Of a DNA stretch of 64,000 nt, positions 13,266-64,000 are shown in pieces. Source of the DNA: an uncultured Gammaproteobacteria bacterium (GTDB lineage Bacteria > Patescibacteriota > Microgenomatia > Daviesbacterales > UBA10151); the NCBI GenBank assembly GCA_964625535.1, contig CAZVEX010000001.1, positions 295 through 64,294 on the forward strand, read 5' to 3'. The position numbers and the translations under genes were made by a program. A model generated the notes under the pieces. It did no database searches and had not been told where the DNA came from. It worked only from the letters and a program-made list of their open reading frames with translations. Within the stretch, counting starts at the first letter, position 1. Each line of letters starts with the position of its first letter.

Positions 13266-13275
13266 TTAAGTTGTC

Positions 13276-22845: not shown

Positions 22846-23715
22846 ATGGCTTGGCAGCACTGGTTTTTACCTCACAAAGATACTCATCAAAAAGCCAAAC
22901 TGATTTCCTGGGAAGGATTAGTGATCTATATTCTGATTTTTATTTTCCTGCAGGTTGGTTTTTCCATAGTAGGTTATACCAAACCCGGAGTATTGGGAAT
23001 CTCGGGAAATATTGATCAAAAAAAACTGATTGAACTGACAAATCTGGAAAGAGAAAAAATGGGTTTGCCTAAAGTTTCGGAAAACCCGGCTCTGGATCAA
23101 GCTGCAGCGCTTAAAGCCCAAAACATGTTTTCCGAAAATTATTGGGCTCATTTTGCCCCATCAGGCAAGACCCCATGGGATTTTATTTTAGGTTCAGGCT
23201 ATAAATTTACCTATGCCGGGGAAAATCTGGCTAAGAATTTTTATAACTCCGATGAAGTGGTCAAGGCCTGGATGAACTCATCTACTCACAGAGACAATCT
23301 GCTGAATGCTAAATATATTGACATTGGCATTGCCGTGGTGGAGGGAGTGTTGAATGGACAGAAAACCACCCTGGTGGTGCAAATGTTTGGCTCAACCAAG
23401 TCCGGTTTTACCCAACCGATTGTATCCGCAGGCGGACAAAAGGTAGCGGTGCCAAAAGAGAAATATCTTAATGCTCCCGCGCTTTTTGCTGAAACGCGGG
23501 GTGAAAATGTCAAGCCTGTCCTGGATCCGTACCTGTTTACCAAAACGGCAGGATTTGCCCTGATATTTTTCGTGACTTTCTTACTGGCTGTTGATCTGGT
23601 AATTTTGAAAAAACGCGGAGTATTTCGGGTGTCGTCTTCCAGAGTGGCCCATATGGCAATTCTGGGAGTGGCAGCAGCCACACTGATAAGCAGCACTCCG
23701 GGAGCAATATTGTGA
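22846..23715 (+). CDS. CAP/SCP/PR1-like extracellular domain protein with an N-terminal TM anchor and a C-terminal TM
   Basis: YWAHFAPSG...AGENLAKNF...VVKAWMNSSTHRDNLLNAKYIDIGIAVV is the CAP (SCP-like) signature. Hydrophobic segments lie at aa ~25-45 and near the C-terminus. Confidence 0.65.
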   Translation: MAWQHWFLPHKDTHQKAKLISWEGLVIYILIFIFLQVGFSIVGYTKPGVLGISGNIDQKKLIELTNLEREKMGLPKVSENPALDQAAALKAQNMFSENYWAHFAPSGKTPWDFILGSGYKFTYAGENLAKNFYNSDEVVKAWMNSSTHRDNLLNAKYIDIGIAVVEGVLNGQKTTLVVQMFGSTKSGFTQPIVSAGGQKVAVPKEKYLNAPALFAETRGENVKPVLDPYLFTKTAGFALIFFVTFLLAVDLVILKKRGVFRVSSSRVAHMAILGVAAATLISSTPGAIL

Positions 23716-23876
23716 TGAAAAACGAACTTTATATTTTAACTGTTGCCATCCTTGCCTATCTCATTTGGGCCCTCTGGCACCATCGCCGGGACAAAAGTTT
23801 GACTTTGCCTATTTTGATAGAGTATCTTTTAACTGCTGCTCTTTCTTTAGTTTTATTAACAGGAGTTTTATTGTGA
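23715..23876 (+). CDS. small 53-aa two-TM membrane protein (below the ORF-track size cutoff)
   Basis: ATG overlaps the CAP-gene TGA (tgATG). It translates as MKNELYILTVAILAYLIWALWHHRRDKSLTLPILIEYLLTAALSLVLLTGVLL. Its stop overlaps the rfbA GTG start (ttGTGAaa), and AGGAG lies 8 nt before that GTG. Confidence 0.4.
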   Translation: MKNELYILTVAILAYLIWALWHHRRDKSLTLPILIEYLLTAALSLVLLTGVLL

Positions 23877-24955
23877 AAGCCATTATACCTACAGGCGGTC
23901 GCGGAACAAGGATGCGGCCTTTAACTTTTTCCGCCAATAAACATTTTATTCCCCTGGCGAACAAGCCGATTATTTTTTACCCGATTGAAACTGTAGCGGA
24001 TGCCGGTATTAAAGAAGTAGCCATCACATATAACCCGCAAGGACAGGAGGAAGCAAAAGAGATTTTAGGCGACGGTTCAAGGTGGGGACTAAAATTTAGC
24101 TATGTTTTGCAGGAGAAACCAAAAGGCCTGGCTAACATTTTTCAAGTTTGCGAAGAATTCTTAAATGGGGAAGCTTTTGTCCTGCATTTGGGGGATAATA
24201 TTTTTGTAAACGGCATCAAAAATCTGGTTGATTTTTTTGTTAGTGAGCGCCCAAATGCCCTTTTAACCTATCTTCAACATTCAGACAACAAAAGATTGGG
24301 AGTTCCTTTTTTTGATGAAAAAGGAGACCTCATTCGTTATGTAGAAAAACCGGAAAATCCTCCCAATGACTTTGGCATCCCGGGTCTTTATTTTTTTGAT
24401 CATCATGTTTTTGAGTGCTTTAAAGGGAAAGATGCCATCAAGGCATCAGCGCGGGGGGAGCTGGAAATTTCCGATCCGTATAACTGGTTAATAGATCATG
24501 GCTTTAAAGTTGAGGCAAAGGAGTATGAAGGCAAATGGATGGATCCGGGCAAATTTGATGACTTCTTGGAGGCCAATCAGTATATTTTGCAGCATCAGCT
24601 GGAAGAGAAAAGAGAAAGTGAACCTGACGCCGGCAGCAAGATAACAGGCAAGGTATCAATCGGCAAAGACTGCATTATTAAAAGATCTCTCATTCATGGT
24701 CCGTTAATCATTGGAGACGGCTGTGTGATTGAAGATTCTTCTATCGGTCAATATACATCAGTTGGTGATGTATGCAGAATCAGGGATAGTAAGATAGAAA
24801 ACAGTGTTTTGATGAAAGGCGTCAAGATCCAGGGCGTCAGGGAGCATCCGTTAGCAAGCAGTCTGATAGGGACAGACAGTGAAGTCTTTGGATCCAATGG
24901 TAAAGGGGCAGCGACCTCTCTTTTTGTAGGAGAAAAGTGTAAAATACAAGTCTAG
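23873..24955 (+). CDS. rfbA: glucose-1-phosphate thymidylyltransferase-like sugar nucleotidyltransferase (long form with a C-terminal left-handed beta-helix)
   Basis: VKAIIPTGGRGTRMRPLT is the N-terminal G-x-G-t-R-l motif. The hexapeptide-repeat C-terminus is IIGDGCVIEDSSIGQYTSVGDVCRI. A GTG start with an AGGAG SD is preferred over the in-frame ATG at 23765, whose 36-aa extension is non-protein-like. Confidence 0.75.
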   Translation: MKAIIPTGGRGTRMRPLTFSANKHFIPLANKPIIFYPIETVADAGIKEVAITYNPQGQEEAKEILGDGSRWGLKFSYVLQEKPKGLANIFQVCEEFLNGEAFVLHLGDNIFVNGIKNLVDFFVSERPNALLTYLQHSDNKRLGVPFFDEKGDLIRYVEKPENPPNDFGIPGLYFFDHHVFECFKGKDAIKASARGELEISDPYNWLIDHGFKVEAKEYEGKWMDPGKFDDFLEANQYILQHQLEEKRESEPDAGSKITGKVSIGKDCIIKRSLIHGPLIIGDGCVIEDSSIGQYTSVGDVCRIRDSKIENSVLMKGVKIQGVREHPLASSLIGTDSEVFGSNGKGAATSLFVGEKCKIQV

Positions 24956-25957
24956 ATGAAACTATTAATTACTGGCGGGGCCGGTTTTATCGGCTCCAAT
25001 TTTATACATTATTGGTTGAAAAATCATCCGGATGATCAAATAGTTAATCTGGACGCTCTCACCTATGCCGGACATCTGGAGAGCCTAAAAGACATAGAAA
25101 GAAACCCAAATTATAAGTTTGTTAAAGGAGATATTTCAGACGAGAATGCAGTGAAACAAGTTATGAATGAGGTAGATACTGCGGTGCATTTTGCAGCGGA
25201 ATCTCATGTTGATCGTTCAATTATCAACCCTTTGCAATTTGTCAGGACTAATGTTTTAGGAACGGCTGTTTTATTAAACGCCGCCCTAGATGCTAAAGTT
25301 AAAAGATTTCATCACGTTTCATCGGATGAGGTATATGGTCAGCTTGGGCCAAATGATCCGTCATTTAAGGAAGATACACCTTACAGACCGCGCACCCCCT
25401 ATGCTGCTTCCAAAGCAGGATCAGATCATCTGGTCAGAGCTTATAATCAAACATATGGATTGCCTGTAACCATTACCAATTGTGCCAATAATTTTGGTCC
25501 CTATCAGGATCCGGAAAAGCTGATCCCAAGATTTATCACTAATTTACTGGAAGGTAAAAAAGTGCCTTTAATGGGTAAAGGAGAAAATATCCGGGAATGG
25601 CTTTATGTTGAAGATCATGCAAAAGCCATTGATCTGGTTTTGCAAAAAGGGCAAATAGGAGAAACCTATTTGGTGCAGGGAGAAGAAAAAACAAATTTGG
25701 AGGTGACCAGGAAATTGCTACAGATTTTGGGAATGGATGAATCTATGATAGATTATGTTCCGCACCGCCTTGGGCATGATTTCCGCTACGCCACCGACGG
25801 TGCAAAAGTGACGGCGCTGGGATGGAAAAGGCAGCACAATTTTGATGAGGGTTTGGTAGAAACGGTTCGTTTCTACAAAGAGAACAAATGGTGGTGGGGA
25901 AGCTTAAAACAAGACAGGCCAAATGTGGACAGGGGAGCTCAAAAATCTTATGGATAA
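24956..25957 (+). CDS. rfbB: dTDP-glucose 4,6-dehydratase
   Basis: MKLLITGGAGFIGSNF, the YAASKAGSDH catalytic YxxxK and the ...HVSSDEVYG motif are present. Confidence 0.9.
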   Translation: MKLLITGGAGFIGSNFIHYWLKNHPDDQIVNLDALTYAGHLESLKDIERNPNYKFVKGDISDENAVKQVMNEVDTAVHFAAESHVDRSIINPLQFVRTNVLGTAVLLNAALDAKVKRFHHVSSDEVYGQLGPNDPSFKEDTPYRPRTPYAASKAGSDHLVRAYNQTYGLPVTITNCANNFGPYQDPEKLIPRFITNLLEGKKVPLMGKGENIREWLYVEDHAKAIDLVLQKGQIGETYLVQGEEKTNLEVTRKLLQILGMDESMIDYVPHRLGHDFRYATDGAKVTALGWKRQHNFDEGLVETVRFYKENKWWWGSLKQDRPNVDRGAQKSYG

Positions 25958-26498
25958 AAAAAATATTACAAAAACGTCAATTCCTGGGCTGTTAATTTTG
26001 GAAAGACCGATTTTTGAAGACGAGAGAGGTTTTTTTCGGGAAATTTTTCATATGGATCAGCTGGAAAAAGCACTTGGATTTGAGTTTAAGCCGATTCAGA
26101 TGAATCATTCAAGATCTATGCCGCGGGTTCTTCGCGGTTTGCACGCCGAGCAGTGGAACAAATTGATTTACCCGGTCACCGGGACGGTATTTTTGGCTAT
26201 TGTCGATTTAAGGCCGTCCTCGCCAACTTTTGCCAAAGTGGAAACTTTTACCATAGATGAGAGGCATAGATACGGTTTGTTTATACCCAATGGTTTTGCC
26301 AATTCTGTCTGCGTGGTGGGAGAGGATCCGGTTGATTATATTTATTTGACAGACGCTTACTGGGATGGATCAGATCAAAGGGCCATTGCCTGGGATGATC
26401 CGGATTTGGCAGTAGAGTGGCCAATAAAAGATCCGATTATCTCCCCAAGGGATAGAAATAATCCCAAACTTCGGGATCTGTTTCCGGAGAAATTTTAA
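25950..26498 (+). CDS. rfbC: dTDP-4-dehydrorhamnose 3,5-epimerase
   Basis: IFEDERGFFREIF and ...RGLHAEQWNKLIYPVTGTVFLAIVDLR form the cupin RmlC signature. Start is taken at MDKKNITKT, overlapping the rfbB end. Confidence 0.85.
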   Translation: MDKKNITKTSIPGLLILERPIFEDERGFFREIFHMDQLEKALGFEFKPIQMNHSRSMPRVLRGLHAEQWNKLIYPVTGTVFLAIVDLRPSSPTFAKVETFTIDERHRYGLFIPNGFANSVCVVGEDPVDYIYLTDAYWDGSDQRAIAWDDPDLAVEWPIKDPIISPRDRNNPKLRDLFPEKF

Positions 26499-26530
26499 AC
26501 AGATGGTTGACGAGATAGCCTCCCATTAGA

Positions 26531-26536
26531 TATAGT
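26531..26536 (+). promoter_or_regulatory. -10-like TATAGT located 10 nt upstream of the gmd ATG (possible internal, leaderless-type promoter)
   Basis: Read from the sequence. No SD is present. Confidence 0.3.
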
Positions 26537-26546
26537 AGAGCAAGCT

Positions 26547-27557
26547 ATGACAAAAAGAGCTTTTATTACAGGAATTTCCGGACAAGACGGATCATATTTG
26601 ACCGAAATTTTACTTGATAAAGGGTATGCGGTGGGTGGTTTAATTCGAAGAAACGCCACGGCAGAAATGGGCAATATTGATGATTTCAAAGAAGAAATTA
26701 AAATTTACTATGGCGATTTACAATCCCCCGAATCAATAGCTTTGGCTCTTTTGGATTTTAAGCCGGATGAAATCTATAATCTGGCTTCTTTTTCCTCTCC
26801 TTTGGGATCTTTTGCCGACAAGCTTGGTTCAATTATGATTACGGGAGTGGGAGCCTTTCATGTTTTTGAGAGAGCTAAAGATGTGGTTCCCGAAGCCAAA
26901 ATTTATCAGGCATCCACTTCGGAAATGTTTGGCGCGCCCCGGGAAGTGCCGCAGGACGAGACTACCCCGCTTAATCCCAAAAACCCCTATGCCGTGGCCA
27001 AAGAATATGCCCACAGAATGGCGATCATTGCCAGGGAAGACAGCAAAAATCCCCAGTTTATCTCTTGCGGCATCCTTTTTAACCACGAAAGTCCCCGCCG
27101 GGGCTTGAATTTTGTCACCAGAAAAATTACTGCCGCAGTTGCCTGTATTAAAAATGACAGAAAGGAGGATGTTCCTTTAAACGAGATAGGGGAGCCGATT
27201 GTCCAAAATGGTAAACTTAAACTGGGGGATTTGGGGGCAAAAAGGGACTGGGGCTATGCCCCGGATTATGTTGAGGCCATGTGGTTAATGTTGCAGCAGG
27301 AAAGAGCTGATGATTTTGTGATAGCTACAGGAGAAACCCACACCGTAGGGGAGTTTGCAGAGGAAGCGTTTAAAGTGGTTGGTCTAAACTGGAAAGATTA
27401 TGTGGTGACAGATCCTCATTTTGTTCCGCCGGTTCAAACAGGTCCCTTGCAGGGAAATCCGGCCAAAGCCAAAAAAGTCTTGGGTTGGGAGCCGAAAACA
27501 GCCTTCAAGGATCTGGTTAAAATTATGATTCATGCCGATCTTGCCAAGTTCTCTTAA
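26547..27557 (+). CDS. gmd: GDP-mannose 4,6-dehydratase
   Basis: ITGISGQDGSYL, catalytic YAVAKEYAH and the diagnostic GILFNHESPRRG motif are present. Confidence 0.9.
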   Translation: MTKRAFITGISGQDGSYLTEILLDKGYAVGGLIRRNATAEMGNIDDFKEEIKIYYGDLQSPESIALALLDFKPDEIYNLASFSSPLGSFADKLGSIMITGVGAFHVFERAKDVVPEAKIYQASTSEMFGAPREVPQDETTPLNPKNPYAVAKEYAHRMAIIAREDSKNPQFISCGILFNHESPRRGLNFVTRKITAAVACIKNDRKEDVPLNEIGEPIVQNGKLKLGDLGAKRDWGYAPDYVEAMWLMLQQERADDFVIATGETHTVGEFAEEAFKVVGLNWKDYVVTDPHFVPPVQTGPLQGNPAKAKKVLGWEPKTAFKDLVKIMIHADLAKFS

Positions 27558-28744
27558 TGAAAAAAACAGTTTCGGTTGTCCTCCCCACATATAATGAAAA
27601 AGCCAATATTGAAAAAACCGTTGACAAGGTTTTAGAGCAAGAAAAAAACTTACCCGGATGGGAAATTCACATTGTTATTGCAGATGACGTCAGGTCTTCG
27701 GATGGGACGGAAAAGATAGCCAGGGCAATTTGCCAAAAGAATAAAAGAGTGCATTTTATTAAAGCAAACCCGGGCTTGGGAGTGGGTCTTATTGAGGGTC
27801 ATCGGTATGCAATGGGAAAAATCCGTCCGGATATTTTGGCCCAGCTTGATGCGGACGGTCAGGTGGTAACAAATGTACTGGTCGATCTTGTTCAAACCGT
27901 AGAGCAGGGTTTTGATCTGGCTATCGGATCAAGATTTGTCAGGGGAGGGAAGAATCAACTTTCAATAGGGAGGAGAATTTTTACTTATGGAGCCTCACTT
28001 TTTTGTCGGGTGCTGATGGGGCCTTGGGACGTCAGGGAATTTACCAATTCCGCCAGAGCTTTTACACCCTCTCTTTTCCAAAAATTAAATTTTGACAGAC
28101 TCCCCTGGCGTGAAACCTCTTTTATTATCCAGCCGGCATTTTTGCATGAGGCAATTTTAGCGGGAGCAAAATACAAAGAAGTGCCCCTGATTTTTCGGAA
28201 CCGCCTAGAAGGTTATTCCAAAAATAAAGTTTTTAACTATACGTATGATGTTATTACCTATTGTATAGATGCCAGATTACACAAATGGGGTTTTGATATG
28301 CCCTTCTTTTATTTAACCAGAAGGGCTAAAACAATTGTCAAATTTGGTTTGGTGGGGTTTGTGGGAACATTGGTAGACTTCCTTTTTTACAAGTTATTTA
28401 TCAACCTGGGGGGTTTTCCTCCTGCCACTTCCAAAGGAATTTCCACAGAAGTTGCCATTATTAATAATTTCATTTTAAATAATTACTGGACTTTTCGCTA
28501 CAGAAAAACCAAAACTAATTTCTGGACCAAACTGGGGATTTTTAATCTGGTCAGTTTAGGGGGACTGGTGATTGGGGTTTTAATAGTTAAAGTTTTGCAT
28601 TTATACTATGGAGACGGGTTTGTAGATTTGGGGTGGAGAAGGATTGCTTACAATAACTTTTACTTTTTTGCCACCATCCCTTTTGTAATGACCTGGAATT
28701 TCTTCATGAACCACTTTATCACCTGGAAACATCAGGAAGACTAG
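27557..28744 (+). CDS. fusion of a GT2 polyprenol-phosphate sugar synthase (DPM1/ArnC/GtrB-like) to a C-terminal GtrA-like 4-TM domain
   Basis: VVLPTYNEKANI...IADDVRSSDGT...DADGQ is the GT2 DxD signature. The C-terminal ~130 aa have four helices and NNYWTFR, the GtrA-family motif. Confidence 0.75.
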   Translation: MKKTVSVVLPTYNEKANIEKTVDKVLEQEKNLPGWEIHIVIADDVRSSDGTEKIARAICQKNKRVHFIKANPGLGVGLIEGHRYAMGKIRPDILAQLDADGQVVTNVLVDLVQTVEQGFDLAIGSRFVRGGKNQLSIGRRIFTYGASLFCRVLMGPWDVREFTNSARAFTPSLFQKLNFDRLPWRETSFIIQPAFLHEAILAGAKYKEVPLIFRNRLEGYSKNKVFNYTYDVITYCIDARLHKWGFDMPFFYLTRRAKTIVKFGLVGFVGTLVDFLFYKLFINLGGFPPATSKGISTEVAIINNFILNNYWTFRYRKTKTNFWTKLGIFNLVSLGGLVIGVLIVKVLHLYYGDGFVDLGWRRIAYNNFYFFATIPFVMTWNFFMNHFITWKHQED

Positions 28745-29868
28745 TTAAAATCTGCCAAATTTGGCACAGGCGCTACATTATTGACAATGAAGTTTTGGGA
28801 ATATAAATAAATGGCTATTGCCAAAATTATCAGCAATATTTTAAATTCTTTAGATACCAGAACTTTTTCAAAGGCTATTAAAATAAAAGGGGTTATGGGG
28901 AGTAGGTATCTGCTGATGTCTCGATGGACAACCAGTGTGGATGCTGCAAGATAGGTTAAAACAAAAAAAGCCAAGGGGTATAATTTTTGTTTTATCAAAA
29001 ACATTCCGCCTAAAAACCCAAGAATAAAAATATAAATTATGTCCTCCAGCCAAATATCCCCTACCCAAAACTGGGCTTTATTAAAAACACTTAAAGGCGG
29101 AAAAGTTAAATGGATATTATCGCCGGAGTGAAAATAAGCATAAAAATCATTGTAAGTAACGCCGAACCAATAAAAAACTGCTACAAGAGTTAAGGGAATA
29201 AACACGATGGGATAGAAAGAGAGGATATATTTAAGGGACTTTTTTTGATAACCTATCCACAAGACATAGAGAGCTAAAGCTATCCCCAAAAGAATTCCAG
29301 GTGGTCTGACTAATTGGGCTAGCGCCGCAAAGAGAGCTACCGCCCAAATTTTGTTTTTTAGAAAAAAATAAATTGATAAAATAACAAAGAAGATGAAAAC
29401 AGGTTCAGGGGAACCAATAGACCTTACAATGACCCATCTGGCGGGAAGGATTAAAAATATTAAGGACAGTAAAAAAGGATTACTGGAAAGTTTAAAATCT
29501 TTAACTAAAAAGTAAAAAGCCCAAGCGCTTAAAATAGTAAAAAGCAAAGATACAAAAAGCATTGATTTTAGGAAACCCAAAAAGGGAGCAAAAAGGGAGA
29601 TAAACAAGGGATATCCCGGGAAATGAGAGGCAAAATATCCCGCAGGTTGAGTTATATGCAAGCCGGCGATCGCCTCGGGATTATAAAAGGTTTTGGCAAT
29701 AACTATATATTCCAAGCCGTCAAAGTTTCTGTAGATTATATTGAATCCATTGGAAAAATTTAGTCCCCAAAAATTTGGAAGAGAGAGAAGATGGGGAAGC
29801 CAAATCAGAAAGGTTGAGGCTAAAGTCAAAATTGCAATCAAGAAGAGATTTTTCGTTGTTTTGTTCAT
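28741..29868 (-). CDS. polytopic membrane protein, GT-C-like (PIG-V/DUF2029-like mannosyltransferase family?)
   Basis: 375 aa with ~11 TM helices. It shares an N-terminal NFDGxEY motif (NFDGLEYIVIAKTFY) with ORF 59320 (NFDGEHYLSIAIFGY). It is the only minus-strand gene in the island and lies 22 bp from the divergent next gene. Confidence 0.5.
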   Translation of the reverse strand: MNKTTKNLFLIAILTLASTFLIWLPHLLSLPNFWGLNFSNGFNIIYRNFDGLEYIVIAKTFYNPEAIAGLHITQPAGYFASHFPGYPLFISLFAPFLGFLKSMLFVSLLFTILSAWAFYFLVKDFKLSSNPFLLSLIFLILPARWVIVRSIGSPEPVFIFFVILSIYFFLKNKIWAVALFAALAQLVRPPGILLGIALALYVLWIGYQKKSLKYILSFYPIVFIPLTLVAVFYWFGVTYNDFYAYFHSGDNIHLTFPPLSVFNKAQFWVGDIWLEDIIYIFILGFLGGMFLIKQKLYPLAFFVLTYLAASTLVVHRDISRYLLPITPFILIAFEKVLVSKEFKILLIILAIAIYLYSQNFIVNNVAPVPNLADFN

Positions 29869-29890
29869 AATTTGATGTTAGCATATTACC

Positions 29891-32784: not shown

Positions 32785-32796
32785 TATAATGGTAAG

Positions 32797-37548: not shown

Positions 37549-37549
37549 T

Positions 37550-42413: not shown

Positions 42414-42415
42414 TG

Positions 42416-45987: not shown

Positions 45988-46004
45988 TTGATAAGATTTA
46001 CACT

Positions 46005-46898: not shown

Positions 46899-46899
46899 T

Positions 46900-52824: not shown

Positions 52825-52887
52825 AAGCAAACAGGTATTGGTTAATTATTCTAGGATCAAGAAAAGATTATCAAAACTTTTTACTTT

Positions 52888-52941
52888 TATAATCGCACTC
52901 CGGCATATTATGCCATTGGGCTTTAGGTTATGTTAACATAA
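52888..52941 (+). promoter_or_regulatory. promoter/operator region for the GT39 triplet: -10 TATAAT (52888-52893), then a 13-bp palindrome GGCATA-T-TATGCC (52902-52914) at about +1 to +20, and a 14-bp palindrome TTATGTTAACATAA (52928-52941) just before the start codon
   Basis: Both palindromes are perfect and verified base by base. This is the largest intergenic region in the island (119 bp). Confidence 0.5.
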
Positions 52942-52946
52942 AATTG

Positions 52947-56002: not shown

Positions 56003-57524
56003 TAAAGTTAAGCTTTTGCTTTTAATAATTGTAATTTTAGCTCTCGGAGCGAGAATCTATAAATTAGACAGTGTGCCTCCCTCACTTTCCTGGGATGAGG
56101 CGGCAGTGGGATACAATGCCTGGATTATTGCCCGCTTTGGTCAGGACGAATACGGCAAGAGTTTTCCTGTAGTTTTTAAATCTTTCGGTGAGTATAAAAA
56201 CCCGGTGGATATTTACTTCACCTCGCTTTCTGTAAAAGTGCTTGGTCTTAGCGAATTTAGCACGAGATTACCGGCAGCTATTTTTGGAATACTAAATGTA
56301 ATACTTCTATTTTTTCTGGTTAAAGCGTTATTTAATAACAATTGGCTTGGTCTTACCTCTGCATTTTTCTTAAGTATTTCCCCTTATAATATTCATTTTT
56401 CCCATTTCAATCATGAAGCCAATTTTGCTTTATTTTTCTTCATGCTGGGTTTATTGCTGTTTATCTTGACCCTTAAAGGTAAAAAACTTCTCATCTTAGC
56501 TGTGATATTTTTTATCTTAAGCTTTTTTTCTTATAGCGCCTCCAAAATGTTTATCCCGGTTTTTGTATTTTTTCTAGCAATAATCTACAGAAAAGAACTT
56601 TTAAAATTACTCAGGCAGCTACTTTTTTCAGTATGTTTAATAATTCTTCTCTCATTTTTTTTATTCTTAAACCCCCATGCTTTAGGAATAGATAGAGCCG
56701 CTCAAACCATGGGCAAAATAAATCTAGTGGCAGCGCAATATATCAGGCATTTTTCTCCAAATTTTTTATTTATTCACGGGGATAAAAACCCCCGTTTATC
56801 GGCTCAAGCAACAGGCGAATTTTACTACCTTGACGCTGCTTTTCTTGTTGCGGGTGCAATCTATATCTTTCGAAAAAGGTCAAAAGAACTTAAGACTTTA
56901 GCTTTATGGGCGCTCCTTGCTCCTTTACCGGGAAGCTTGACAGCAGAAGCTCCTCATGCCGGGCGAGCGATGTTTATGATGGGGAGTTGGCAGATAATTT
57001 CTGCAGTGGGTTTTTATTATATTGTTCGCTCCATCTCAAACCTAAAATATAAAAGAATAGTCATATTTGGCAGTTTGGTCGTATTAACCGTTCTTTTTGC
57101 CAATTTTCTCATTTATTATTTTGGAAATTATAGTAAACGTTTTGCAATTGAATGGCAATATGGCATGAAACAAATTGTGGAGTTTATTCAGGCAAATCCC
57201 CAGTATAATCATATCTACATGACCGACGCGCGCTATCAGCCATACATTTTTTTCCTTTATTATTTACAAACGCCGTTACCGGATTATTTGCGTACTGTAA
57301 CTTATAATAAGACGGAAATAAGTAGAAGTTATAATAATGTTTTTTCTTTTAATAAATATTTTTTTGGCGGATGGGATAGCGTTGAAAGCATGCCAAAGCT
57401 TGAGGTGTTATATGTTCTTACCCCCAGTCAATACGATGGGTTAAAATATAAATTGCAGTTTGCTATCAAAGAGACAATCTATTATCCTAATGAAACGGTG
57501 GCATTCTATCTGGTAAGCAAGTAA
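55995..57524 (+). CDS. GT39/PMT-like GT-C membrane glycosyltransferase (tandem copy 3)
   Basis: SLSWDEAAVGYNAWIIARFGQDEYGKSFPVVFKSFGEYKNPVDIY is present. The ATG at 55995 overlaps the upstream stop. Confidence 0.65.
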   Translation: MNNKVKLLLLIIVILALGARIYKLDSVPPSLSWDEAAVGYNAWIIARFGQDEYGKSFPVVFKSFGEYKNPVDIYFTSLSVKVLGLSEFSTRLPAAIFGILNVILLFFLVKALFNNNWLGLTSAFFLSISPYNIHFSHFNHEANFALFFFMLGLLLFILTLKGKKLLILAVIFFILSFFSYSASKMFIPVFVFFLAIIYRKELLKLLRQLLFSVCLIILLSFFLFLNPHALGIDRAAQTMGKINLVAAQYIRHFSPNFLFIHGDKNPRLSAQATGEFYYLDAAFLVAGAIYIFRKRSKELKTLALWALLAPLPGSLTAEAPHAGRAMFMMGSWQIISAVGFYYIVRSISNLKYKRIVIFGSLVVLTVLFANFLIYYFGNYSKRFAIEWQYGMKQIVEFIQANPQYNHIYMTDARYQPYIFFLYYLQTPLPDYLRTVTYNKTEISRSYNNVFSFNKYFFGGWDSVESMPKLEVLYVLTPSQYDGLKYKLQFAIKETIYYPNETVAFYLVSK

Positions 57525-57528
57525 ACTT

Positions 57529-58293
57529 ATGACTAAAGTTTCCGTGGTGCTAGCTGTTTACAATGAGGAAGACAACTTGAGGCAGTGTTTGGAATCTGTC
57601 AAAGATTTAGCTTGGGAAATAGTGGTGGTGGATGGGGGATCAACCGATCGGACTTATGAAGTTGCCAGAGATTTTGGAGCCAGGATTGTTGAAACAGATA
57701 ATCCACAGGTATTTCATATCAACAAAAACAAAGCCATAGATGAAGCAAGGGGCGACTGGATATTGCAGCTTGACGCAGATGAAATAGTGACCGAAGAGTT
57801 AAAAAAAGAAATCAAGGAGGCTACCGGGCAAAAAACTGATTTTAATGGATTTTGGATCCCGAGGAGGAATTTTTTTCTGGGAAGATTTCTTAAAAAGGGA
57901 GGTCAATATCCGGATTATACATTGAGACTTTATAAAAAGGGTAAGGGTCGATTGCCGGCCAAAGATGTCCACGAGCAGGCAGTAGTGGAAGGAAAAGTAG
58001 GGTACTTGACGGCTGATTTATTGCATCTGCGAGACAAGACGTTTGCAAACTATCTTGAGGGATTTAACAGGTATACTGATTTATTGGCTTTGCAACTTCA
58101 AGCCTCGGGTCTTAAAAATAATTTTTTTGCATTTTTTAGTTTTCTTTTCTTTAAGCCATTTTTTTGGTTCGTCAAAGCTTATTTTCGCCATCTGGGTTTT
58201 ATGGACGGCTTTCCCGGATTTATTTTTGCCTTGTTTTCATCGTTACGATTTCCTGTGTCATTTATTAAATATCGCATCAGTCATACAAAATGA
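57529..58293 (+). CDS. GT2 glycosyltransferase (WaaE-like), paralog of 46005/46900
   Basis: VSVVLAVYNEEDNL...LQLDADE is present, with the C-terminal ...ANYLEGFNRYT as in its paralogs. Confidence 0.7.
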   Translation: MTKVSVVLAVYNEEDNLRQCLESVKDLAWEIVVVDGGSTDRTYEVARDFGARIVETDNPQVFHINKNKAIDEARGDWILQLDADEIVTEELKKEIKEATGQKTDFNGFWIPRRNFFLGRFLKKGGQYPDYTLRLYKKGKGRLPAKDVHEQAVVEGKVGYLTADLLHLRDKTFANYLEGFNRYTDLLALQLQASGLKNNFFAFFSFLFFKPFFWFVKAYFRHLGFMDGFPGFIFALFSSLRFPVSFIKYRISHTK

Positions 58294-59360
58294 AAATAGC
58301 ATTTAATATTACTCCTTTGAAATCTACTCATAAAGAAAGAGGCATTGGTTATTATACAGGGAATTTACTTGAGGGTTTAAAGAGAGAAAGGGATTTGGAA
58401 ATTGTAGAATTTACTAACCTTGCCGATATCAAAAAGCAAGTCGATGGTATTCATTTTCCCTGGTTTGATTTTTATTTCCATACCTTACCCCTTCAAACTT
58501 CTTTTCCCGCTGTGGTGACAGTGCATGATGTGATCCCGCTGATTTTTAAAGACCAATACCCGGTAGGACTGCGGGGAAAAATCAATTTCATCCTGCAAAG
58601 ATTGGCACTGGGCCGCAGCAAGAAAATAATCACCGACTCTTTAGTGTCCAAGGCCGATATTGCCAAATACTTAAAAATAGATGAAGGTAAAATTGCGGTT
58701 ATTCCCTTGGCCTCTGATCCAAGTTTCAAAGAGTTGAACGAGTCGAAGCTGTTATTCATAAAAAGAAAGTACAATTTACCTGATAAGTTTTTACTATATG
58801 TGGGCGATGCCAACTTTGTTAAAAATTTGCCGTTTTTGATAGATTGCTTCAAGGATTTAGTTAAATCATCGGATCTTGCCGATTTAAAGCTTGTTTTGGT
58901 TGGAGGGGTATTTTTAAAAAATCTGAAAGGGATTGATCACCCGGAACTTATCAGTTTGAAAAAAGCATTAGGAATGATTAAAGATAACAATCTGGAGAGT
59001 AAAGTTTTAAGGCCGGGAAGATTAGCAACAGCAGATCTGGTGGCATTTTATAATCTGGCAACAGTTTATGTTCAGCCTTCATTTTATGAAGGATTTGGGT
59101 TGCCCATATTGCAGGCGTTTGCCTGCGGCACTCCGGTTTTATCTTCCAACAGGGGTGCTCTTCCCGAAGTTGGCGGTAATGCCGCCTTGTATTTTGACCC
59201 CGAAAACAAAACGCAGTTTATTAGTCTTGTTGCAGAAACTCTGCAAAATCCATCTTTGCAAAAAAAGTTATCAAAGCTTGGGTTAGATCAAGCTGCAAAA
59301 TTTTCCTGGGAGAAAACAGTTGAAGAAACAAAATTGGTCTATGAAAAAATTAAATCCTGA
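58290..59360 (+). CDS. GT4-family (GT-B) glycosyltransferase
   Basis: YEGFGLPILQAFACGTPV is the GT4 EX7E region. Confidence 0.7.
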   Translation: MKIAFNITPLKSTHKERGIGYYTGNLLEGLKRERDLEIVEFTNLADIKKQVDGIHFPWFDFYFHTLPLQTSFPAVVTVHDVIPLIFKDQYPVGLRGKINFILQRLALGRSKKIITDSLVSKADIAKYLKIDEGKIAVIPLASDPSFKELNESKLLFIKRKYNLPDKFLLYVGDANFVKNLPFLIDCFKDLVKSSDLADLKLVLVGGVFLKNLKGIDHPELISLKKALGMIKDNNLESKVLRPGRLATADLVAFYNLATVYVQPSFYEGFGLPILQAFACGTPVLSSNRGALPEVGGNAALYFDPENKTQFISLVAETLQNPSLQKKLSKLGLDQAAKFSWEKTVEETKLVYEKIKS

Positions 59361-60495
59361 AACCCTACATATTATATTAATATTTTTGGTATGGAGAATA
59401 GCATTGGTGGTGGTATTGATTTTCTCCATAAGTTTTATCCCCCTTCAATACAAAGATAGATTTTTAGGAGGTGGGCCGATTAATTACCACCTAGCCCCCG
59501 AGCTTTTTTCCTGGGCAAATTTTGATGGTGAGCATTACTTATCAATTGCCATATTTGGTTATAAAGAAAAGGAGCAGGCGTTTTTTCCCGTTTATCCGGG
59601 GATGATGTCTTTTCTGGCCAAACCTTTTTCACCGGATTTACTCTCGTTTCTTGTTAATTCGACAACCGCGGGTTTAATTATTTCTAATTTATCTTTCCTG
59701 CTGGCTTTAATAATTCTTTGGAATTTAATTAAAATAGACTATTCAAAAAAAATCGCCCTTTTTACTCTCGCAACTGTTCTTTTATTCCCAACTTCTTTTT
59801 ATTTCGGCGCAGTTTACAGCGAATCTTTATTTCTATTGTTATCTGTTAGTTCATTTTATTTAGCAAGAAAAGGTCGTTTTCTTAGCGCGTCACTTTTAGG
59901 AGCTGTAGCCTCTGCCACCAGAGTATTTGGTGTATTGCTTCTGGTGGCATTATTAATAGAAGCTTGGGAACAAAAGGTAAAACTTTCAAAATCATTTTGG
60001 ATTTTCCTGATTCCCATAGGCCTTTTAATTTATATGACGTATCAATATTTTTCCGTAGGAAATCCTTTTGCCTTTTACAATTTGCAAGGTCAGGTAGGCG
60101 AACAACATCAATCAGGGGTGGTTTTGCTGCCTCAAGTATATTTTCGTTATATAAAAATGCTTTTGACTGTTGACCCCACTAACCCTATTTATCAGACAAT
60201 AGTTCTGGAACTTTTAGTGGGTATAATTTTCTTTTTACTGCCCTTATACGGCTATTTTAAAAAAGTGAGATTGTCTTATGTTGCATATGCCATGTTGGGA
60301 TTTTTATTACCTACTATAACAGGTAGTTTTTCTTCAGTGCCCAGATATGTTATCATCCTTTTTCCCTCTTTTTTGATTCTGGCAATGATCATAAATAAAC
60401 TACCAAATGCGTTAAAGATTGCTATTTTAAGCTTTTCCGCTTTGGTGCTTATTGCGGAAACAGCGCTTTTCTTAAGGGGGTATTGGGTAGCATGA
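59320..60495 (+). CDS. GT-C-like polytopic membrane protein (PIG-V/DUF2029-like), related to the 28741 gene. An alternative start lies at 59341.
   Basis: It shares NFDGEHYLSIAIFGY with the 28741 gene's NFDGLEYIVIAKTFY. It has ~10 TM helices. Confidence 0.5.
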   Translation: MKKQNWSMKKLNPETLHIILIFLVWRIALVVVLIFSISFIPLQYKDRFLGGGPINYHLAPELFSWANFDGEHYLSIAIFGYKEKEQAFFPVYPGMMSFLAKPFSPDLLSFLVNSTTAGLIISNLSFLLALIILWNLIKIDYSKKIALFTLATVLLFPTSFYFGAVYSESLFLLLSVSSFYLARKGRFLSASLLGAVASATRVFGVLLLVALLIEAWEQKVKLSKSFWIFLIPIGLLIYMTYQYFSVGNPFAFYNLQGQVGEQHQSGVVLLPQVYFRYIKMLLTVDPTNPIYQTIVLELLVGIIFFLLPLYGYFKKVRLSYVAYAMLGFLLPTITGSFSSVPRYVIILFPSFLILAMIINKLPNALKIAILSFSALVLIAETALFLRGYWVA

Positions 60496-61760
60496 AGACA
60501 TTTTTTAGATTAATTAACCATCCATTATTTTCCGGAAGCTTGGTTATGGTTGTCGGAAGTAATTTGGTTAATTTTTTAAATTATTTATATCATCTGATTA
60601 TTGGTAGAATACTTGGTCCATCGGACTATGGCGAGCTTGCCGCCATTATATCTTTGATAGGGCTTTTGAGTATTGTTCCGGCTTCAATAAATCTGGTAAT
60701 TATCAAATATGTTTCCTCGACAAAGGATGACGCAAAACTTACCAATTTAATAAGCTGGCTGAAGTCTGGTACTATCAAAGCTTCTTTGATTCTATTTTTT
60801 GCCATCCTTGCAGCATCCCCCTTTATCGCCTCGTTTTTGCACATAAATAAATTAATTTATCTGATACTCATCGCCGTATCTTATTTGATTTCCTTTCAAT
60901 CTTTGTTTTACAGATCAATCTTGCAAGGTTTACTAAAATTTAAAGAGATGATAATCAGTATTTTGGCAGAAAATATGGTCAAGCTTGTTGTTAGCGTACT
61001 ACTCATCTATTTTGGATTTCGGGTAGGCGGTGCCGTATTTGCTTTCCTGGTTGCGGCTCTAGTAGGTTGGTATATAACAATTTTTTATCTAAAGATTAAG
61101 ACAAAAAAGGTTGATAATCCCCCTGATGTAAAAGCTATGGCTTTGTTTACTATACCGGTTATAATTCAGTCTTTTGCTATGACTTCTGTTTATTCGTCCG
61201 ATGTGATTTTGGTTAAGCATTTTTTTTCCTCTCATGATGCCGGGATTTATGCTTCGCTTTCAACTTTGGGAAAAATAATTCTTTTCGCAACCGGTCCTAT
61301 TGGAGCCGTGATGTTTCCTTTAGTTTCAAAACGCAGCGCCAAAGGAGAAAATTATAAAAGAGTATTTATATTTAGCTTTTTAACCACTCTATCTGTGGCA
61401 ACAATGATTTTGGTAATTTACTGGTTATTTCCTGTTATGGCGATTAGTTTACTTTACGGATCGCTTTTTCTTGAAGCTGCCAATCTTTTATTCTGGTTTG
61501 GCATTTTTATTACCTGCTTTACCCTATCTTTTCTAATAGTAAACTACAATCTGTCTTTGGGTAAAACTAAGGTTGTGATCTTCCCGGCTATTGGCGCCCT
61601 GTTGCAAATTATACTTATCTGGATTTATCACCAGAGTCTATTTACGGTTATACTGATTTCAATTATAGTCTCCGCTTTACTACTTGTCGCTTTGCTTATA
61701 TACTCTATCTATTCTAACAATGGACATAAAGTTGATTTCAGTCATAGTACCGGCGTATAA
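60492..61760 (+). CDS. Wzx-like flippase (MOP family), second copy
   Basis: ~420 aa with 12+ TM helices. The ATG overlaps the upstream TGA. Confidence 0.55.
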   Translation: MKTFFRLINHPLFSGSLVMVVGSNLVNFLNYLYHLIIGRILGPSDYGELAAIISLIGLLSIVPASINLVIIKYVSSTKDDAKLTNLISWLKSGTIKASLILFFAILAASPFIASFLHINKLIYLILIAVSYLISFQSLFYRSILQGLLKFKEMIISILAENMVKLVVSVLLIYFGFRVGGAVFAFLVAALVGWYITIFYLKIKTKKVDNPPDVKAMALFTIPVIIQSFAMTSVYSSDVILVKHFFSSHDAGIYASLSTLGKIILFATGPIGAVMFPLVSKRSAKGENYKRVFIFSFLTTLSVATMILVIYWLFPVMAISLLYGSLFLEAANLLFWFGIFITCFTLSFLIVNYNLSLGKTKVVIFPAIGALLQIILIWIYHQSLFTVILISIIVSALLLVALLIYSIYSNNGHKVDFSHSTGV

Positions 61761-62526
61761 ACAAGAAATTACTATTGCCAGAGATTTGCAAAGAATCAAA
61801 GAAGTTCTGGATAAGCTACGCTACCCCAGCGAACTTATTTGTGTGATTGACGGTAAAGCTGATAAGACTTTTAAAGAAGCCTCAAAGTTTGCCGAAAGAT
61901 GCAACAATGTCAAAGTTATAGGTTATGATCATAACAAGGGAAAAGGTTATGCCATCCGTTTTGGGATTGCCGAAAGTAAAGGAGATATCATCGGGTTCAT
62001 TGACGCGGGAATGGATCTTAACCCACGAGGTATCCTGCTGCTATTGGAGCAATTTGAATGGTATAATGCAGACATAATAGTTGGCTCCAAGAGACACCCT
62101 GTTTCTAAAGTTTATTATCCGTGGCAGAGGAAAATTCTTTCATTTAGTTATCAGATACTGGTCTGGTTGCTTTTTGGATTAAAGGTAAAAGATACTCAAG
62201 TGGGAATGAAATTTTTCAAAAGAGAAGTTTTGGAAAAAGTTCTTCCCCGACTTTTGGTCAAACGCTTTGCTTTTGATGTGGAAATGCTGGCTGTTGCCAA
62301 TGCTTTAAACTATAAAAGAATATATGAAGCGCCCGTTGATATAAAACTTCGCTTTGGAGGTACCTCGACTATTACCAGCCAAAAATTTTTAAGAACAGTC
62401 TTAGCAATGCTTATGGATACTCTGGCAATTTTTTATAGACTGAAAATATTGGGATATTATTCCGATAAAAACAAAAGAAAGTGGAGATTTGATCCCGAGT
62501 TAAATTTTAGGGTAAATATCGGATGA
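61720..62526 (+). CDS. GT2 glycosyltransferase (DPM1/ArnC-like)
   Basis: ISVIVPAYKQEITI...VIDGKADKT...FIDAGMD is present. The start at MDIKLIS overlaps the flippase 3' end in another frame. Confidence 0.7.
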   Translation: MDIKLISVIVPAYKQEITIARDLQRIKEVLDKLRYPSELICVIDGKADKTFKEASKFAERCNNVKVIGYDHNKGKGYAIRFGIAESKGDIIGFIDAGMDLNPRGILLLLEQFEWYNADIIVGSKRHPVSKVYYPWQRKILSFSYQILVWLLFGLKVKDTQVGMKFFKREVLEKVLPRLLVKRFAFDVEMLAVANALNYKRIYEAPVDIKLRFGGTSTITSQKFLRTVLAMLMDTLAIFYRLKILGYYSDKNKRKWRFDPELNFRVNIG

Positions 62527-64000
62527 AATTCCTCCTGTTGAGTGTTATTTTTCTTTCAATTCTGCTTTTTTCAAAGACTGCGTTGGCTCAAGAAAGTAAT
62601 TTAAGCAACAACCAATTTGTTACCATTGTTAATCCTTTCAGAATTTCTTCTTATACTAGGGATCCAAAAGCCGCACTTTTAGCGCAGTATAAACAAGTTA
62701 AGATAAGAAATCTGCCGGCAACCTGGCTTTTGACATACGATGTTCTGATAAATCCCGATACACATGCTGATATTTTGGAGTTTGACAGTTTGCAGGAGGT
62801 TGGGGTTTTTCTGGAAGTCACGCCGAAATTCGCTAGCGCATCAGGAGTTTTGTATAACAAGACAGATTCCTGGCATAGGGCGCATACGGTTTTTCTCTCG
62901 GGGTACACCCAAGAGGACAGGATAAAATTGATAGATAAAATCTTTGAAGAATTCAAAAAAATCTTTGGGTTTTACCCCAAGTCAGTCGGAGGGTGGTGGG
63001 TTGATAGCTTCTCCCTTGATTATATGAAGAAAAAATATGATATATCGGCCAATTTAACAGTGGCAGATCAATTTGCCACCGATGGTTACAAACTTTGGGG
63101 ACAATACTGGTCAACTCCGTTTTATCCCAGTAAATATCATGCCGGAATACCCGCAAGGACAGTTGAAAATAAGCTGGATCTGGTGACTATTCAGTGGGCA
63201 GCCAGAGATCCTTTAAACGGTTACGGTAAGGCAGGGGAGAGCACTTTTAGCACCCAAGATTATTTTACCAGAAATCTATCTGATGACTATTTTGAAAAAC
63301 TGGTTGATTTATATACAAAACAAAACGGAAATATGTTTGGACAAATTACCATTGGGTTGGAAGGTGATTTTACTCCGGAAGTTTATGGTGGCAACTTTAG
63401 CAGGCAACTTGATATTGTCAAGAAAAAGCAGGATGAAGGGCAAATTAAGGTTTTGACAATGAAAGATTTCAGCCTCCGGTACAGAAGTATGTTTACAAAG
63501 CTGTCTCCTGCGCATATTATTCAAACGGATGATTTGTTAGGAAAAAAGATCAAAACCTTTTGGTTTCAGTCGCCTGTTTACAGAATTAACATAACTTATG
63601 ACTATGAATCGAATAAAACTTATGTTAACGACTTCAGAAGTTACCACGGCGATTTTGAGGAGCCTTATTATTTTTCCCCTAATAGAGATTTGAATTTACA
63701 AATAAATATTCCTTCGATAATTGATTCTGCTGGCAATCCAGAGGATGGTTGGTTAATTGTGGATACTAAACTTAAATCAGTTGACATAAGAGATAACAAA
63801 CTTTTCCTTAATTTTGACAAAGCACAAATACAACTGGAGGAGGGAAAAATTAATATTTCCGGTAAGATTAACTCTTTACCACAAAGGGTTGCCCGCTCTC
63901 CTTATCTGCAAGTGGTAAAAAAGTGGGGGAAAATAGAGCTTGAGCCAAAAATTAAATGGCCGTATCCGGAGGAAGGCTTTAAATTTAGAGATTTAACTCA
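62523..64000 (+). CDS. secreted protein, 3'-partial, carrying the same ~450-aa extracytoplasmic domain as the N-terminus of 38997..42413
   Basis: Not in the ORF track because it runs off the window. Translated by hand as MKFLLLSVIFLSILLFSKTALAQESN...GGWWVDSFSLDYMKKKYDISANLTVADQFATDGYKLWGQYWSTPFYPS...IQWAARDPLNGYG...KVLTMKDFSLRY. There are no stops to position 64000. Confidence 0.7.
   Translation, partial: MKFLLLSVIFLSILLFSKTALAQESNLSNNQFVTIVNPFRISSYTRDPKAALLAQYKQVKIRNLPATWLLTYDVLINPDTHADILEFDSLQEVGVFLEVTPKFASASGVLYNKTDSWHRAHTVFLSGYTQEDRIKLIDKIFEEFKKIFGFYPKSVGGWWVDSFSLDYMKKKYDISANLTVADQFATDGYKLWGQYWSTPFYPSKYHAGIPARTVENKLDLVTIQWAARDPLNGYGKAGESTFSTQDYFTRNLSDDYFEKLVDLYTKQNGNMFGQITIGLEGDFTPEVYGGNFSRQLDIVKKKQDEGQIKVLTMKDFSLRYRSMFTKLSPAHIIQTDDLLGKKIKTFWFQSPVYRINITYDYESNKTYVNDFRSYHGDFEEPYYFSPNRDLNLQINIPSIIDSAGNPEDGWLIVDTKLKSVDIRDNKLFLNFDKAQIQLEEGKINISGKINSLPQRVARSPYLQVVKKWGKIELEPKIKWPYPEEGFKFRDLT

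Follow-up and report, generated by a model that had tools for sequence, protein, structure and literature searches.

The three-component glycosylation systems (GtrA/GtrB/Gtr*, ArnC/ArnEF/ArnT, CsbB/GtcA/YfhO and PPPRS/MATE/GT136) each use one GT-C enzyme to place one side-chain sugar on a separately made glycan, and a flippase of the MOP/MATE family has been found to serve a system of polyprenyl-phosphate sugar and GT-C (Kelly et al. 2024, PMC11127046). Related logics are those by which mycobacteria and corynebacteria make lipomannan (LM), lipoarabinomannan (LAM) and arabinogalactan, the haloarchaeal Agl pathway and the ALG/oligosaccharyltransferase (OST) pathway of the endoplasmic reticulum (ER), and protein O-mannosylation. 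Here we analyze a 64,000-nucleotide stretch of DNA (contig CAZVEX010000001.1, positions 295 to 64,294 of the forward strand; hereafter the window) from Candidatus Daviesbacteria, a lineage of Microgenomates within the Candidate Phyla Radiation (CPR)/Patescibacteria, in which positions 23,765-64,000 hold a dense array of glycan genes with 15 GT-C proteins. We propose that this is probably the main cell-surface glycosylation locus of its host, built of concatenated three-component extracytoplasmic systems around one Wzx-coupled step.

Members of the CPR/Patescibacteria have ultrasmall cells and live mostly as episymbionts, their biology depends on the cell surface, and their envelope glycans are almost undescribed. 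Literature searches turned up neither this locus nor a GT-C expansion in CPR; the one related remark was a passing mention, for a single Microgenomates genome, of "29 glycosyl transferases" (PMC7143001).

A locus dominated by GT-C enzymes

According to the map of open reading frames (ORFs) and to Pfam and NCBIfam assignments, positions 23,765-64,000 comprise 30 ORFs (g02-g31) that are glycan-related throughout, and the one small non-glycan ORF said to lie within this span was not found. Except for g07 (28,741-29,868, minus strand), all are on the plus strand, with stop and start codons overlapping at most ORF junctions and the widest gap measuring 119 nt. The gene inventory of the original prediction (rfbABC, gmd, four DPM1/ArnC-like GT2 synthases, three more GT2s, two GT4s, two Wzx-like flippases and a GtrA domain) agrees with the Pfam and NCBIfam matches, and its figure of about 15 GT-C proteins proved to be exactly 15 in the region. 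GT-C-containing ORFs account for 24.9 kb of the 40.3-kb region.

The Pfam gathering score of a GT-C family is passed by 12 ORFs: g08 (in its C-terminal part, g08C), g10, g11, g12, g16, g20-g25 and g28. The families concerned are PMT_2/PMT in g08C, g10, g12, g16 and g21-g25, PTPS_related/YfhO in g11 and g12, PIG-M/GT87 in g20 and PIG-V in g28. PMT_2/PMT models match 10 ORFs, with low scores (25-48 bits) and in proteins of 470-565 aa; no MIR domains were found in these PMT_2/PMT-like GT-Cs. Along the plus strand lie g10 (32797-34254; PMT_2 42.7 bits, gathering score 26.1; D37-E38 right behind the first transmembrane helix, TM1), the YfhO/PTPS_related-type paralogues g11 and g12 (34251-37548; 33% identical, both above the PTPS_related gathering score, g12 also above that of PMT_2), g16 (44431-45987; PMT_2 38.6 bits, above the gathering score), g20 of the PIG-M/GT87 type (48779-49900; PIG-M 30.5 bits, gathering score 23.4; GT87 26.9 bits, gathering score 25), five tandem PMT_2-type enzymes, g21-g25 (49893-57524; PMT_2 above the gathering score in all, PMT in g23 and g25), of which g23, g24 and g25 share 31-35% identity pairwise, and g28 of the PIG-V/GT76 type (59320-60495; Mannosyl_trans2 41.4 bits, gathering score 22.4), whose loop 1 contains an NFDGEHY motif. 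Three proteins without a Pfam match of their own, g07, g14 and g15, are GT-Cs by other evidence and complete the total of 15. Each of the 15 candidates has 6-15 hydrophobic segments by hydropathy, and the AlphaFold2 secondary structure of g07 and g14 concurs.

An acidic residue in loop 1 is the signature of GT-C enzymes, and here it is predicted from sequence to be catalytic. Right behind TM1, 13 of 13 aligned paralogues carry an Asp (Glu in g22), usually as D-E, in what is the sole near-invariant column of the alignment, and equivalent acidic residues could be located by inspection in g15, g20 and g28. Together with D50 of g07 and D622 of g14, these signatures and folds bear out the earlier assignment of the membrane proteins to GT-C, which had been made to depend on such a fold and residue. 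Four DPM1/ArnC-type synthases encoded at the same locus suggest that the GT-Cs would draw on polyprenyl-phosphate-linked sugar donors.

The inverted gene g07 (28741-29868, minus strand) encodes a short GT-C of 375 aa that was assigned from its AlphaFold model and its homologues. Its loop-1 residue D50 is invariant across 36 homologues. More than 1,000 homologues exist, many with precomputed PMT_2/PMT matches or named GT39 or Gpi18-like, and those at 64-82% identity bear PF13231/PF02366. The top 32 matches of the model (pLDDT 73, pTM 0.78) in a Foldseek comparison with the PDB are GT-C structures without exception, including STT3, PglB, PIG-U, GPI-MT-I, ALG3/9/12, ArnT, Emb and Pmt. A role for g07 as a missing Wzy or ligase was considered and ruled out, given the PMT_2/PMT matches among homologues and a model that matches GT-C structures only. 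At its 3' end g07 shares 4 nt with g06, and 22 nt separate its start from that of g08; relatives, namely L005 and many metagenomic loci, have the gene inverted in the same way.

A flippase gene paired with an uncharacterized GT-C family

Immediately upstream of g14 lies g13 (37550-39004, plus strand), a Wzx/MOP flippase (Polysacc_synt_3, 1e-51; MOP and O-glycosylation flippase models below cut-off). The 1138-aa product of g14 (38997-42413, plus strand) consists of a signal anchor, an ectodomain (residues ~25-470) that resembles hydrolases or deacetylases (CE4/ArnD- or GH-like), a GT-C membrane domain (~480-1000) and an AglB-like C-terminal globular domain. It is composite: residues 1-490 share 39% identity with g31, and residues 586-1137 share 33% identity with g15. 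The latter (42413-44434, plus strand; 673 aa) is a stand-alone paralogue of the membrane and C-terminal domains, while g31 (62523-64000, plus strand) is a paralogue of the ectodomain that is incomplete at the window end; a complete relative of g31 (672 aa) continues with 2 further TM helices and a g14-like C-terminal domain.

Several observations place g14 and g15 among the GT-Cs. The segment H621-D622-G623-x-W625-H626 (HDGxWH) of g14 is invariant across 43 homologues, its membrane core is aligned by hhalign to the PMT_2 paralogues of the window with 93% probability, and both proteins have an AglB-like architecture, in which an external globular domain comes after a 13-TM GT-C core. No Pfam family was found for g14 or g15 at E <= 0.01, STT3 (PF02516) included; a profile of 43 g14 homologues identified no solved structure by sequence, and single searches of the PDB with g14 and g07 returned nothing meaningful. 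True membership of g14/g15 in STT3/AglB (GT66) was thus ruled out on sequence criteria, while the structural resemblance persists. When 1.84 billion cluster representatives were scanned in full, 1,277 of them fell into the g14/g15 family at E <= 1e-3, in stand-alone (~550-680 aa) and ectodomain-fused (~1,000-1,170 aa) forms. None of 10 diverse members has a GT-C Pfam match, and 9 of the 10 have no Pfam match at all.

The pairing with Wzx is a constant feature of this family: in all loci that have an ORF upstream of the g14 homologue (70/70), that ORF is a Wzx homologue. In the tenth of these members, P0288 (1,639 aa), Wzx and a g14-like sequence occur in a single chain that is 47% identical to g14 over the full g14 length. 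As this may be either a true Rosetta-stone fusion or a frameshift artefact at the 8-nt g13/g14 overlap, we treat it as weak evidence. A second Wzx/MOP flippase gene, g29, lies farther downstream (60483-61760, plus strand; Polysacc_synt 2.7e-23, Polysacc_synt_3 7.6e-19).

Conservation, extent and origin of the locus

The core of the locus recurs in relatives. The syntenic genome CP066688.1, which at 820,589 bp accords with the small, compact genome that had been supposed, has the order prfB-ftsE-ftsX-M23, CAP, rmlABC, GT2+GtrA, g07, GT2-PMT_2, GT2, PMT_2, PTPS_related, Wzx, g14, and OBOI01000006.1 preserves g10 to g22 in the same order. Gene order and flanks also agree in Ca. Daviesbacteria UBA9644 (L002, an 83% identical relative), and orthologues in the three are 41-90% identical to those of the window. 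A metagenome scan identified 76 loci in which the core order [g07] g08 g09 g10 (g11/g12 x1-5) g13 g14 is kept, and among metagenomic loci with at least 12 ORFs, a mean of 8.9 of 15.6 ORFs are GT-C-like. The part downstream of g14 varies among relatives.

Paralogue turnover is visible at several points. The YfhO/PTPS_related tandem, which occupies 34251-37548 in the window, has 1-5 copies in relatives (L003, L021, L024, L029 and others), and downstream of g14 relatives gain or lose ~800-aa YfhO proteins, extra GT2s, a 935-aa alpha/beta-hydrolase and GHMP kinases. Extra polytopic proteins are encoded in L008 (19403-20572), L018 (15278-16444 and 21712-22998) and L063 (21703-23406); these have 388-568 aa and 8-13 hydrophobic segments, without a Pfam match or a window homologue, and could be further GT-Cs or Wzy-like polymerases.

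The locus also extends beyond the span of 23715-64000 originally drawn for it: the run of 30 glycan ORFs from 23,765 stands, and further glycan genes lie on either side. In L002 the sugar genes continue for at least 10 kb past the point that matches the window end, with a GT4, an epimerase, a GT2, a GHMP kinase, UDP-glucose dehydrogenase, a second short-chain dehydrogenase/reductase (SDR), DUF5667, an unknown ORF and a sugar C-methyltransferase following g31. Upstream, a satellite (10135-16249) holds 3 extra GT-C genes (10135-11583, minus; 13276-14757, plus; 14750-16249, plus), all three matched by BLAST to the GT-C domain of g08 (6e-25, 6e-9 and 6e-15), together with GalE (12309-13235, minus; 270 bits, cut-off 262). 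In 2 of these 3 GT-Cs the PMT_2 score falls just short of the gathering score; counting them, the window encodes 18 GT-Cs (15 in the region and 3 in the satellite). The satellite lies 8-13 kb upstream of the start assigned in the original prediction. Among its genes sits one of the CofE-like F420-0:gamma-glutamyl ligase family (11606-12346), which is odd for a CPR genome.

The term island, which had been applied to the locus, holds for a dense glycan locus but not for a horizontally acquired one. GC content is 35-44% within the region versus 35-48% outside it, so that the composition matches the rest of the window, and a Pfam and tRNA scan of the region revealed no integrase, transposase or tRNA; because, in addition, the gene order and the prfB-ftsEX-M23 flank are kept in relatives, and the core recurs in the 76 loci, horizontal acquisition was ruled out. 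The locus is a vertically inherited core with paralogue turnover. Consensus scans for promoters and terminators did no better on the sequence than on shuffles of it and were set aside.

Elsewhere in the window, a class I lysyl-tRNA synthetase (tRNA-synt_1f, E 7.5e-87) at 2154-3719, of a type typical of archaea, sits beside SecA and FtsEX in this bacterial genome, and the ORFs at 102-1238 (378 aa) and 21892-22491 (minus strand; 199 aa) have no significant family match.

Nucleotide sugars, lipid-linked donors and soluble glycosyltransferases

The region opens with g02 (23765-24955, plus strand), the long form of RmlA (glucose-1-phosphate thymidylyltransferase with an LbH domain; NCBIfam rmlA_long 343 bits, cut-off 320; Pfam NTP_transferase 3e-43). 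Its listed start is a TTG 37 codons ahead of the part that aligns with the RmlA profile (23765-23875), and since the alignment begins only after them, these first ~37 codons are probably untranslated. The next genes, all on the plus strand, encode RmlB (g03, dTDP-glucose 4,6-dehydratase, 24956-25957; TIGR01181 449 bits, cut-off 365), RmlC (g04, dTDP-4-dehydrorhamnose 3,5-epimerase, 25923-26498; Pfam dTDP_sugar_isom 1e-45; TIGR01221 E 3e-41, slightly below cut-off) and a Gmd-like GDP-mannose 4,6-dehydratase (g05, 26547-27557; Pfam GDP_Man_Dehyd 6.5e-95; TIGR01472 E 2e-93, below cut-off). The gmd gene is missing from the equivalent position in L005, and rmlD was found neither in the region nor at the equivalent place in L005; SDR genes downstream in L002 may fill the role of the missing reductase.

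Four plus-strand genes encode polyprenyl-phosphate sugar synthases or their likes. The first, g06 (27557-28744), joins a GT2 to a 4-TM GtrA/DPMS domain (Pfam GT2 and GtrA_DPMS_TM) and, in a PDB sequence search, aligns along its entire length with the Pyrococcus furiosus Dol-P-Man synthase (5mlz; E 1e-27). In g08 (29891-32029), a DPM1/ArnC-type GT2 (residues 1-230; g08N) is fused to a PMT_2 GT-C (235-712; Pfam GT2 1e-31, PMT_2 5e-10, and PMT), and the same kind of search matched the N-terminus to 5mlz (1e-16), ArnC (7e-16) and GtrB (5e-14); the topology of the fusion suits the proposed model, with the GT2 inside and loop 1 outside after the first TM helix. The other two, g09 and g30, are soluble. 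A DPM1/ArnC/PgfS-like GT2, g09 (32026-32784; Pfam GT2 1.6e-27) is 34% identical to the g08 N-terminus, and its top NCBIfam models are PgfS, ArnC and Dol-P-hexose transferase, every one below cut-off. The DPM1/ArnC-like g30 (61720-62526; Pfam GT2; 29% identical to g08N) was moved to its probable start, the ATG at 61,720, which gives 268 aa, as in the 90%-identical L002 orthologue.

Five soluble Leloir glycosyltransferases, likewise on the plus strand, complete the set. The GT2s g17 and g18 (46005-47706) belong by paralogy to a second clade together with g26 (Pfam GT2; weak NCBIfam matches to SunS and others), g19 (47703-48782) is a GT4 (Glycos_transf_1, 4.8e-23), and g26 (GT2) and g27 (GT4) lie side by side (57529-59360) and were assigned by Pfam. 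The GT2s of the locus have 0-1 TM helix or, in g06, the DPMS-type 4-TM domain.

Classical pathway components are not detected

Families were scanned in 51 major window ORFs, including all 31 in and beside the region. As the original prediction had stated, no initiating phosphoglycosyltransferase (PGT), Wzy, Wzz, ABC exporter or synthase was found in these 51 ORFs. For PGTs (PF00953, PF02397) the negative result further covers the 10 kb that follow the g31 homologue of L002 and sampled accessory ORFs of relatives. The Wzy_C, O-antigen polymerase, ligase and Wzz families are equally without a match in the 51 ORFs, a negative that is weaker for Wzy than a positive test because Wzy proteins are very divergent. 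Among the window ORFs scanned, we detected no ABC2 glycan exporter, no processive multi-TM GT2 synthase and no Arabinose_trans, AftA or UbiA-type families, and the window holds no LCP ligase, teichoic-acid or decaprenyl-phosphate-arabinose genes. Its only ABC genes are those of FtsE/FtsX, and a role for these as a glycan exporter was ruled out by their FtsX_ECD domain and the neighbouring M23 peptidase. Nor does a PGT/Wzy/Wzz set adjoin the locus, in keeping with the expectation of the original prediction, there being none in the window's 23 kb upstream of it or, in the 83%-identical relative, in the 10 kb beyond the window end. Across the ~74 kb of window and L002, PGT, Wzy and Wzz were not detected, nor was a WaaL-type ligase in the window ORFs scanned, which leaves Wzx as the part of a Wzx/Wzy pathway that was found.

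A model for the locus and its alternatives

The model that we favor, a chain of three-component systems around a Wzx-coupled step, builds on observed gene identities, folds, loop-1 acidic residues, synteny and Wzx-g14 adjacency, and from these it proposes the donors, the order of steps, the en bloc role of g14/g15 and the acceptor. Nucleotide sugars would be supplied by RmlA/B/C, Gmd and GalE, and g06, g08N, g09 and g30 would charge polyprenyl phosphate with single sugars at the cytoplasmic face. The five soluble glycosyltransferases (g17, g18, g19, g26 and g27) imply a short cytoplasmic lipid-linked oligosaccharide, which they would probably build by lengthening one lipid-linked sugar. Outward flipping of the lipid-linked sugars could fall to the GtrA-type domain of g06 and the two Wzx/MOP proteins, after which the 15 GT-Cs (18 in the window) would add sugars singly, on the outer face, to a surface glycan or glycoprotein. 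Within this scheme, g13 with g14/g15 would form the Wzx-coupled step, g14/g15 acting as a transferase or polymerase that accepts the flipped oligosaccharide, and the hydrolase/deacetylase-like ectodomain of g14 would trim the product or modify it. With g14 AglB-like in architecture and invariably paired with Wzx, g14/g15 are the best candidates for handling an oligosaccharide outside the cell. The acceptor could be surface proteins, such as the minus-strand protein at 16,640-17,692, or a wall- or lipid-linked polymer. Stepwise extracytoplasmic assembly, as the original prediction had it, is thus retained as far as the GT-C array goes; a purely extracytoplasmic route is not, since two Wzx proteins and five soluble Leloir enzymes argue for a hybrid with a cytoplasmic lipid-linked phase.

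Several points weigh against this model. Two Wzx proteins with five Leloir glycosyltransferases normally imply a PGT-started oligosaccharide on undecaprenyl pyrophosphate, and no PGT is encoded in the window; either a PGT is encoded outside it or assembly may proceed on a monophosphate, by analogy with the Agl pathway of Haloferax. Some of the GT-C paralogues could be non-catalytic, like PIG-U. No WWDYG motif is present in g14/g15, where TYPYD follows the first C-terminal strand, nor is there an STT3 Pfam match. STT3 and PglB also lead the Foldseek list for g07, so that OST-like top matches are partly generic to the GT-C fold, and P0288 is a singleton from one 8.8-kb short-read Logan contig. 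A stronger version of the model, which we consider unlikely, is a PGT- and Wzy-independent route resembling Agl and the ER, with DPM1-like priming, soluble extension, flipping by g13, finishing by external GT-Cs, and en bloc transfer or polymerization by g14/g15. If it were true, g14/g15 would represent a new family of bacterial oligosaccharyltransferases or polymerases that takes over the role of STT3/PglB, WaaL or Wzy.

The rival explanations differ mainly in what the sugars would be attached to. It is possible, though short of probable, that the locus makes a cell-wall or lipid-anchored heteropolysaccharide, with a primer made inside and flipped, elongation and branching by GT-Cs outside, and attachment to peptidoglycan or a membrane lipid, on the model of mycobacterial arabinogalactan/LAM or of YfhO-dependent teichoic-acid glycosylation. 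The YfhO/PTPS_related paralogues fit such a product, as do the structural neighbours AftA, AftB, AftD, Emb and PimE, dTDP-rhamnose genes reminiscent of the arabinogalactan linker, and a CE4/ArnD-like ectodomain in g14/g31 that suits polymer modification, and to our knowledge a comparable GT-C density is known only from Corynebacteriales envelopes. Set against these are the failure of any window ORF scanned to match the Emb/Aft-specific Pfam families, the lack of decaprenyl-phosphate-arabinose, LCP ligase and teichoic-acid genes in the window, and the missing RmlD; Ppm1-type logic, as described in PMC3485146, again counts in favor. A protein O-glycosylation machine, in which PMT_2/PMT-like GT-Cs glycosylate Ser/Thr of secreted, pilus or S-layer proteins from polyprenyl-phosphate sugars and the paralogues add successive residues or serve separate substrates, seems rather unlikely; since it concerns the acceptor, it is compatible with our proposed mechanism. 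Its appeal lies in the 10 ORFs that match PMT_2/PMT models, although PMT_2 is broad and also takes in ArnT- and RgtA-D-type enzymes that modify lipids and glycans, and MIR domains were not found in the PMT_2/PMT-like proteins. The g13 profile resembles, below cut-off, an "O-glycosylation flippase" model, and two proteins offer themselves as substrates: a secreted protein (16640-17692, minus strand) with an STP-rich linker, PSPTPSPSPSPS, and a C-terminal membrane anchor, and a very Pro-rich membrane protein (5817-6584, minus strand) encoded by a locally GC-rich (48%) stretch. These candidates are suggestive, however, rather than diagnostic, and the Rml and Gmd genes with five Leloir glycosyltransferases suggest a complex heteroglycan over simple mannosylation.

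We regard as improbable an ordinary Wzx/Wzy pathway in which the GT-Cs merely add side branches that diversify an antigen, for example to counter recognition by phage or host, the genes for PGT, polymerase and chain-length control or ligation being located elsewhere or having diverged too far to be recognized. Such a pathway would be a natural setting for the two Wzx genes and five soluble glycosyltransferases, the variable region past g14 in relatives holds the Pfam-less 388-568-aa polytopic proteins that are possibly Wzy-like, and the copy number of GT-C paralogues differs between relatives. The core from g07 to g14 is nonetheless strictly conserved rather than variable, no PGT, Wzy or Wzz emerged from the ~74 kb or from the sampled accessory ORFs of relatives, and we know of no precedent for 15 decorating enzymes on a single polymer.

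The locus, at >40 kb, takes up ~5% of a 0.8-Mb genome. That so small a genome keeps ~25 kb of GT-C genes together at one conserved locus implies that a complex external glycan is strongly selected for, and this glycan is a candidate for mediating attachment to a host, resistance to phage or the integrity of the envelope. It offers a compact, co-linear natural case of multi-step extracytoplasmic glycan assembly and bears on the presence of ER- or archaeal-style lipid-linked assembly logic in bacteria, and g14/g15 form an uncharacterized GT-C clade tightly coupled to a flippase; both the locus and this family may be of use in glyco-engineering.

Comparison with known systems

The likeness to mycobacterial LAM and arabinogalactan assembly that had been proposed for the locus was not upheld, as no specific link to Emb or Aft emerged. 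The mycobacterial and corynebacterial systems for LM, LAM and arabinogalactan (Ppm1, PimE, MptA-C, EmbA-C, AftA-D) do resemble it in their many GT-Cs, in cytoplasmic priming followed by elongation outside and in the dTDP-rhamnose genes, and Emb, Aft and PimE enzymes are among the structural neighbours. Emb/Aft signatures and decaprenyl-phosphate-arabinose genes were, however, not detected in the window, and AftA, AftB, AftD and Emb are neighbours only in the general GT-C fold. Whereas mycobacterial GT-C genes are scattered over a 4.4-Mb genome, five times larger, those described here are gathered in one locus of a ~0.8-Mb genome in an unrelated phylum.

With protein O-mannosylation (Ppm1 and PMT, GT39) the locus shares PMT/PMT_2 matches, D-E after TM1 in most paralogues and a partner synthase of polyprenyl-phosphate sugars; it differs in that its proteins have 470-565 aa, lack MIR domains and score a mere 25-48 bits, and in having 10 paralogues, whereas actinobacteria have 1 PMT paralogue.

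The closest logic is that of the haloarchaeal Agl and ER-lumen ALG/OST pathways, which likewise combine DPM1-like GT2s acting on polyprenol, soluble GT2s and GT4s, a Wzx-like flippase (AglR) and GT-Cs on the outside, and whose AglB/STT3 has, like g14/g15, a GT-C core with a C-terminal globular domain. The Haloferax glycan is built on a monophosphate, so that a PGT is unneeded. The present locus departs from these pathways in its bacterial host, in Agl model matches that are far below cut-off, and in g14/g15, in which neither an STT3 Pfam match nor a WWDYG motif was found.

The closest mechanism is that of the three-component systems, which, like this locus, encode a GT2 synthase, a small or MOP flippase and an acidic-loop GT-C together. 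Unlike them, the locus shows no separate backbone pathway in its own gene content, and in place of one GT-C it has 4 synthases, 3 flippase modules and 15-18 GT-Cs. Its component classes are thus all known; its arrangement, its scale and the g14/g15 family are new.

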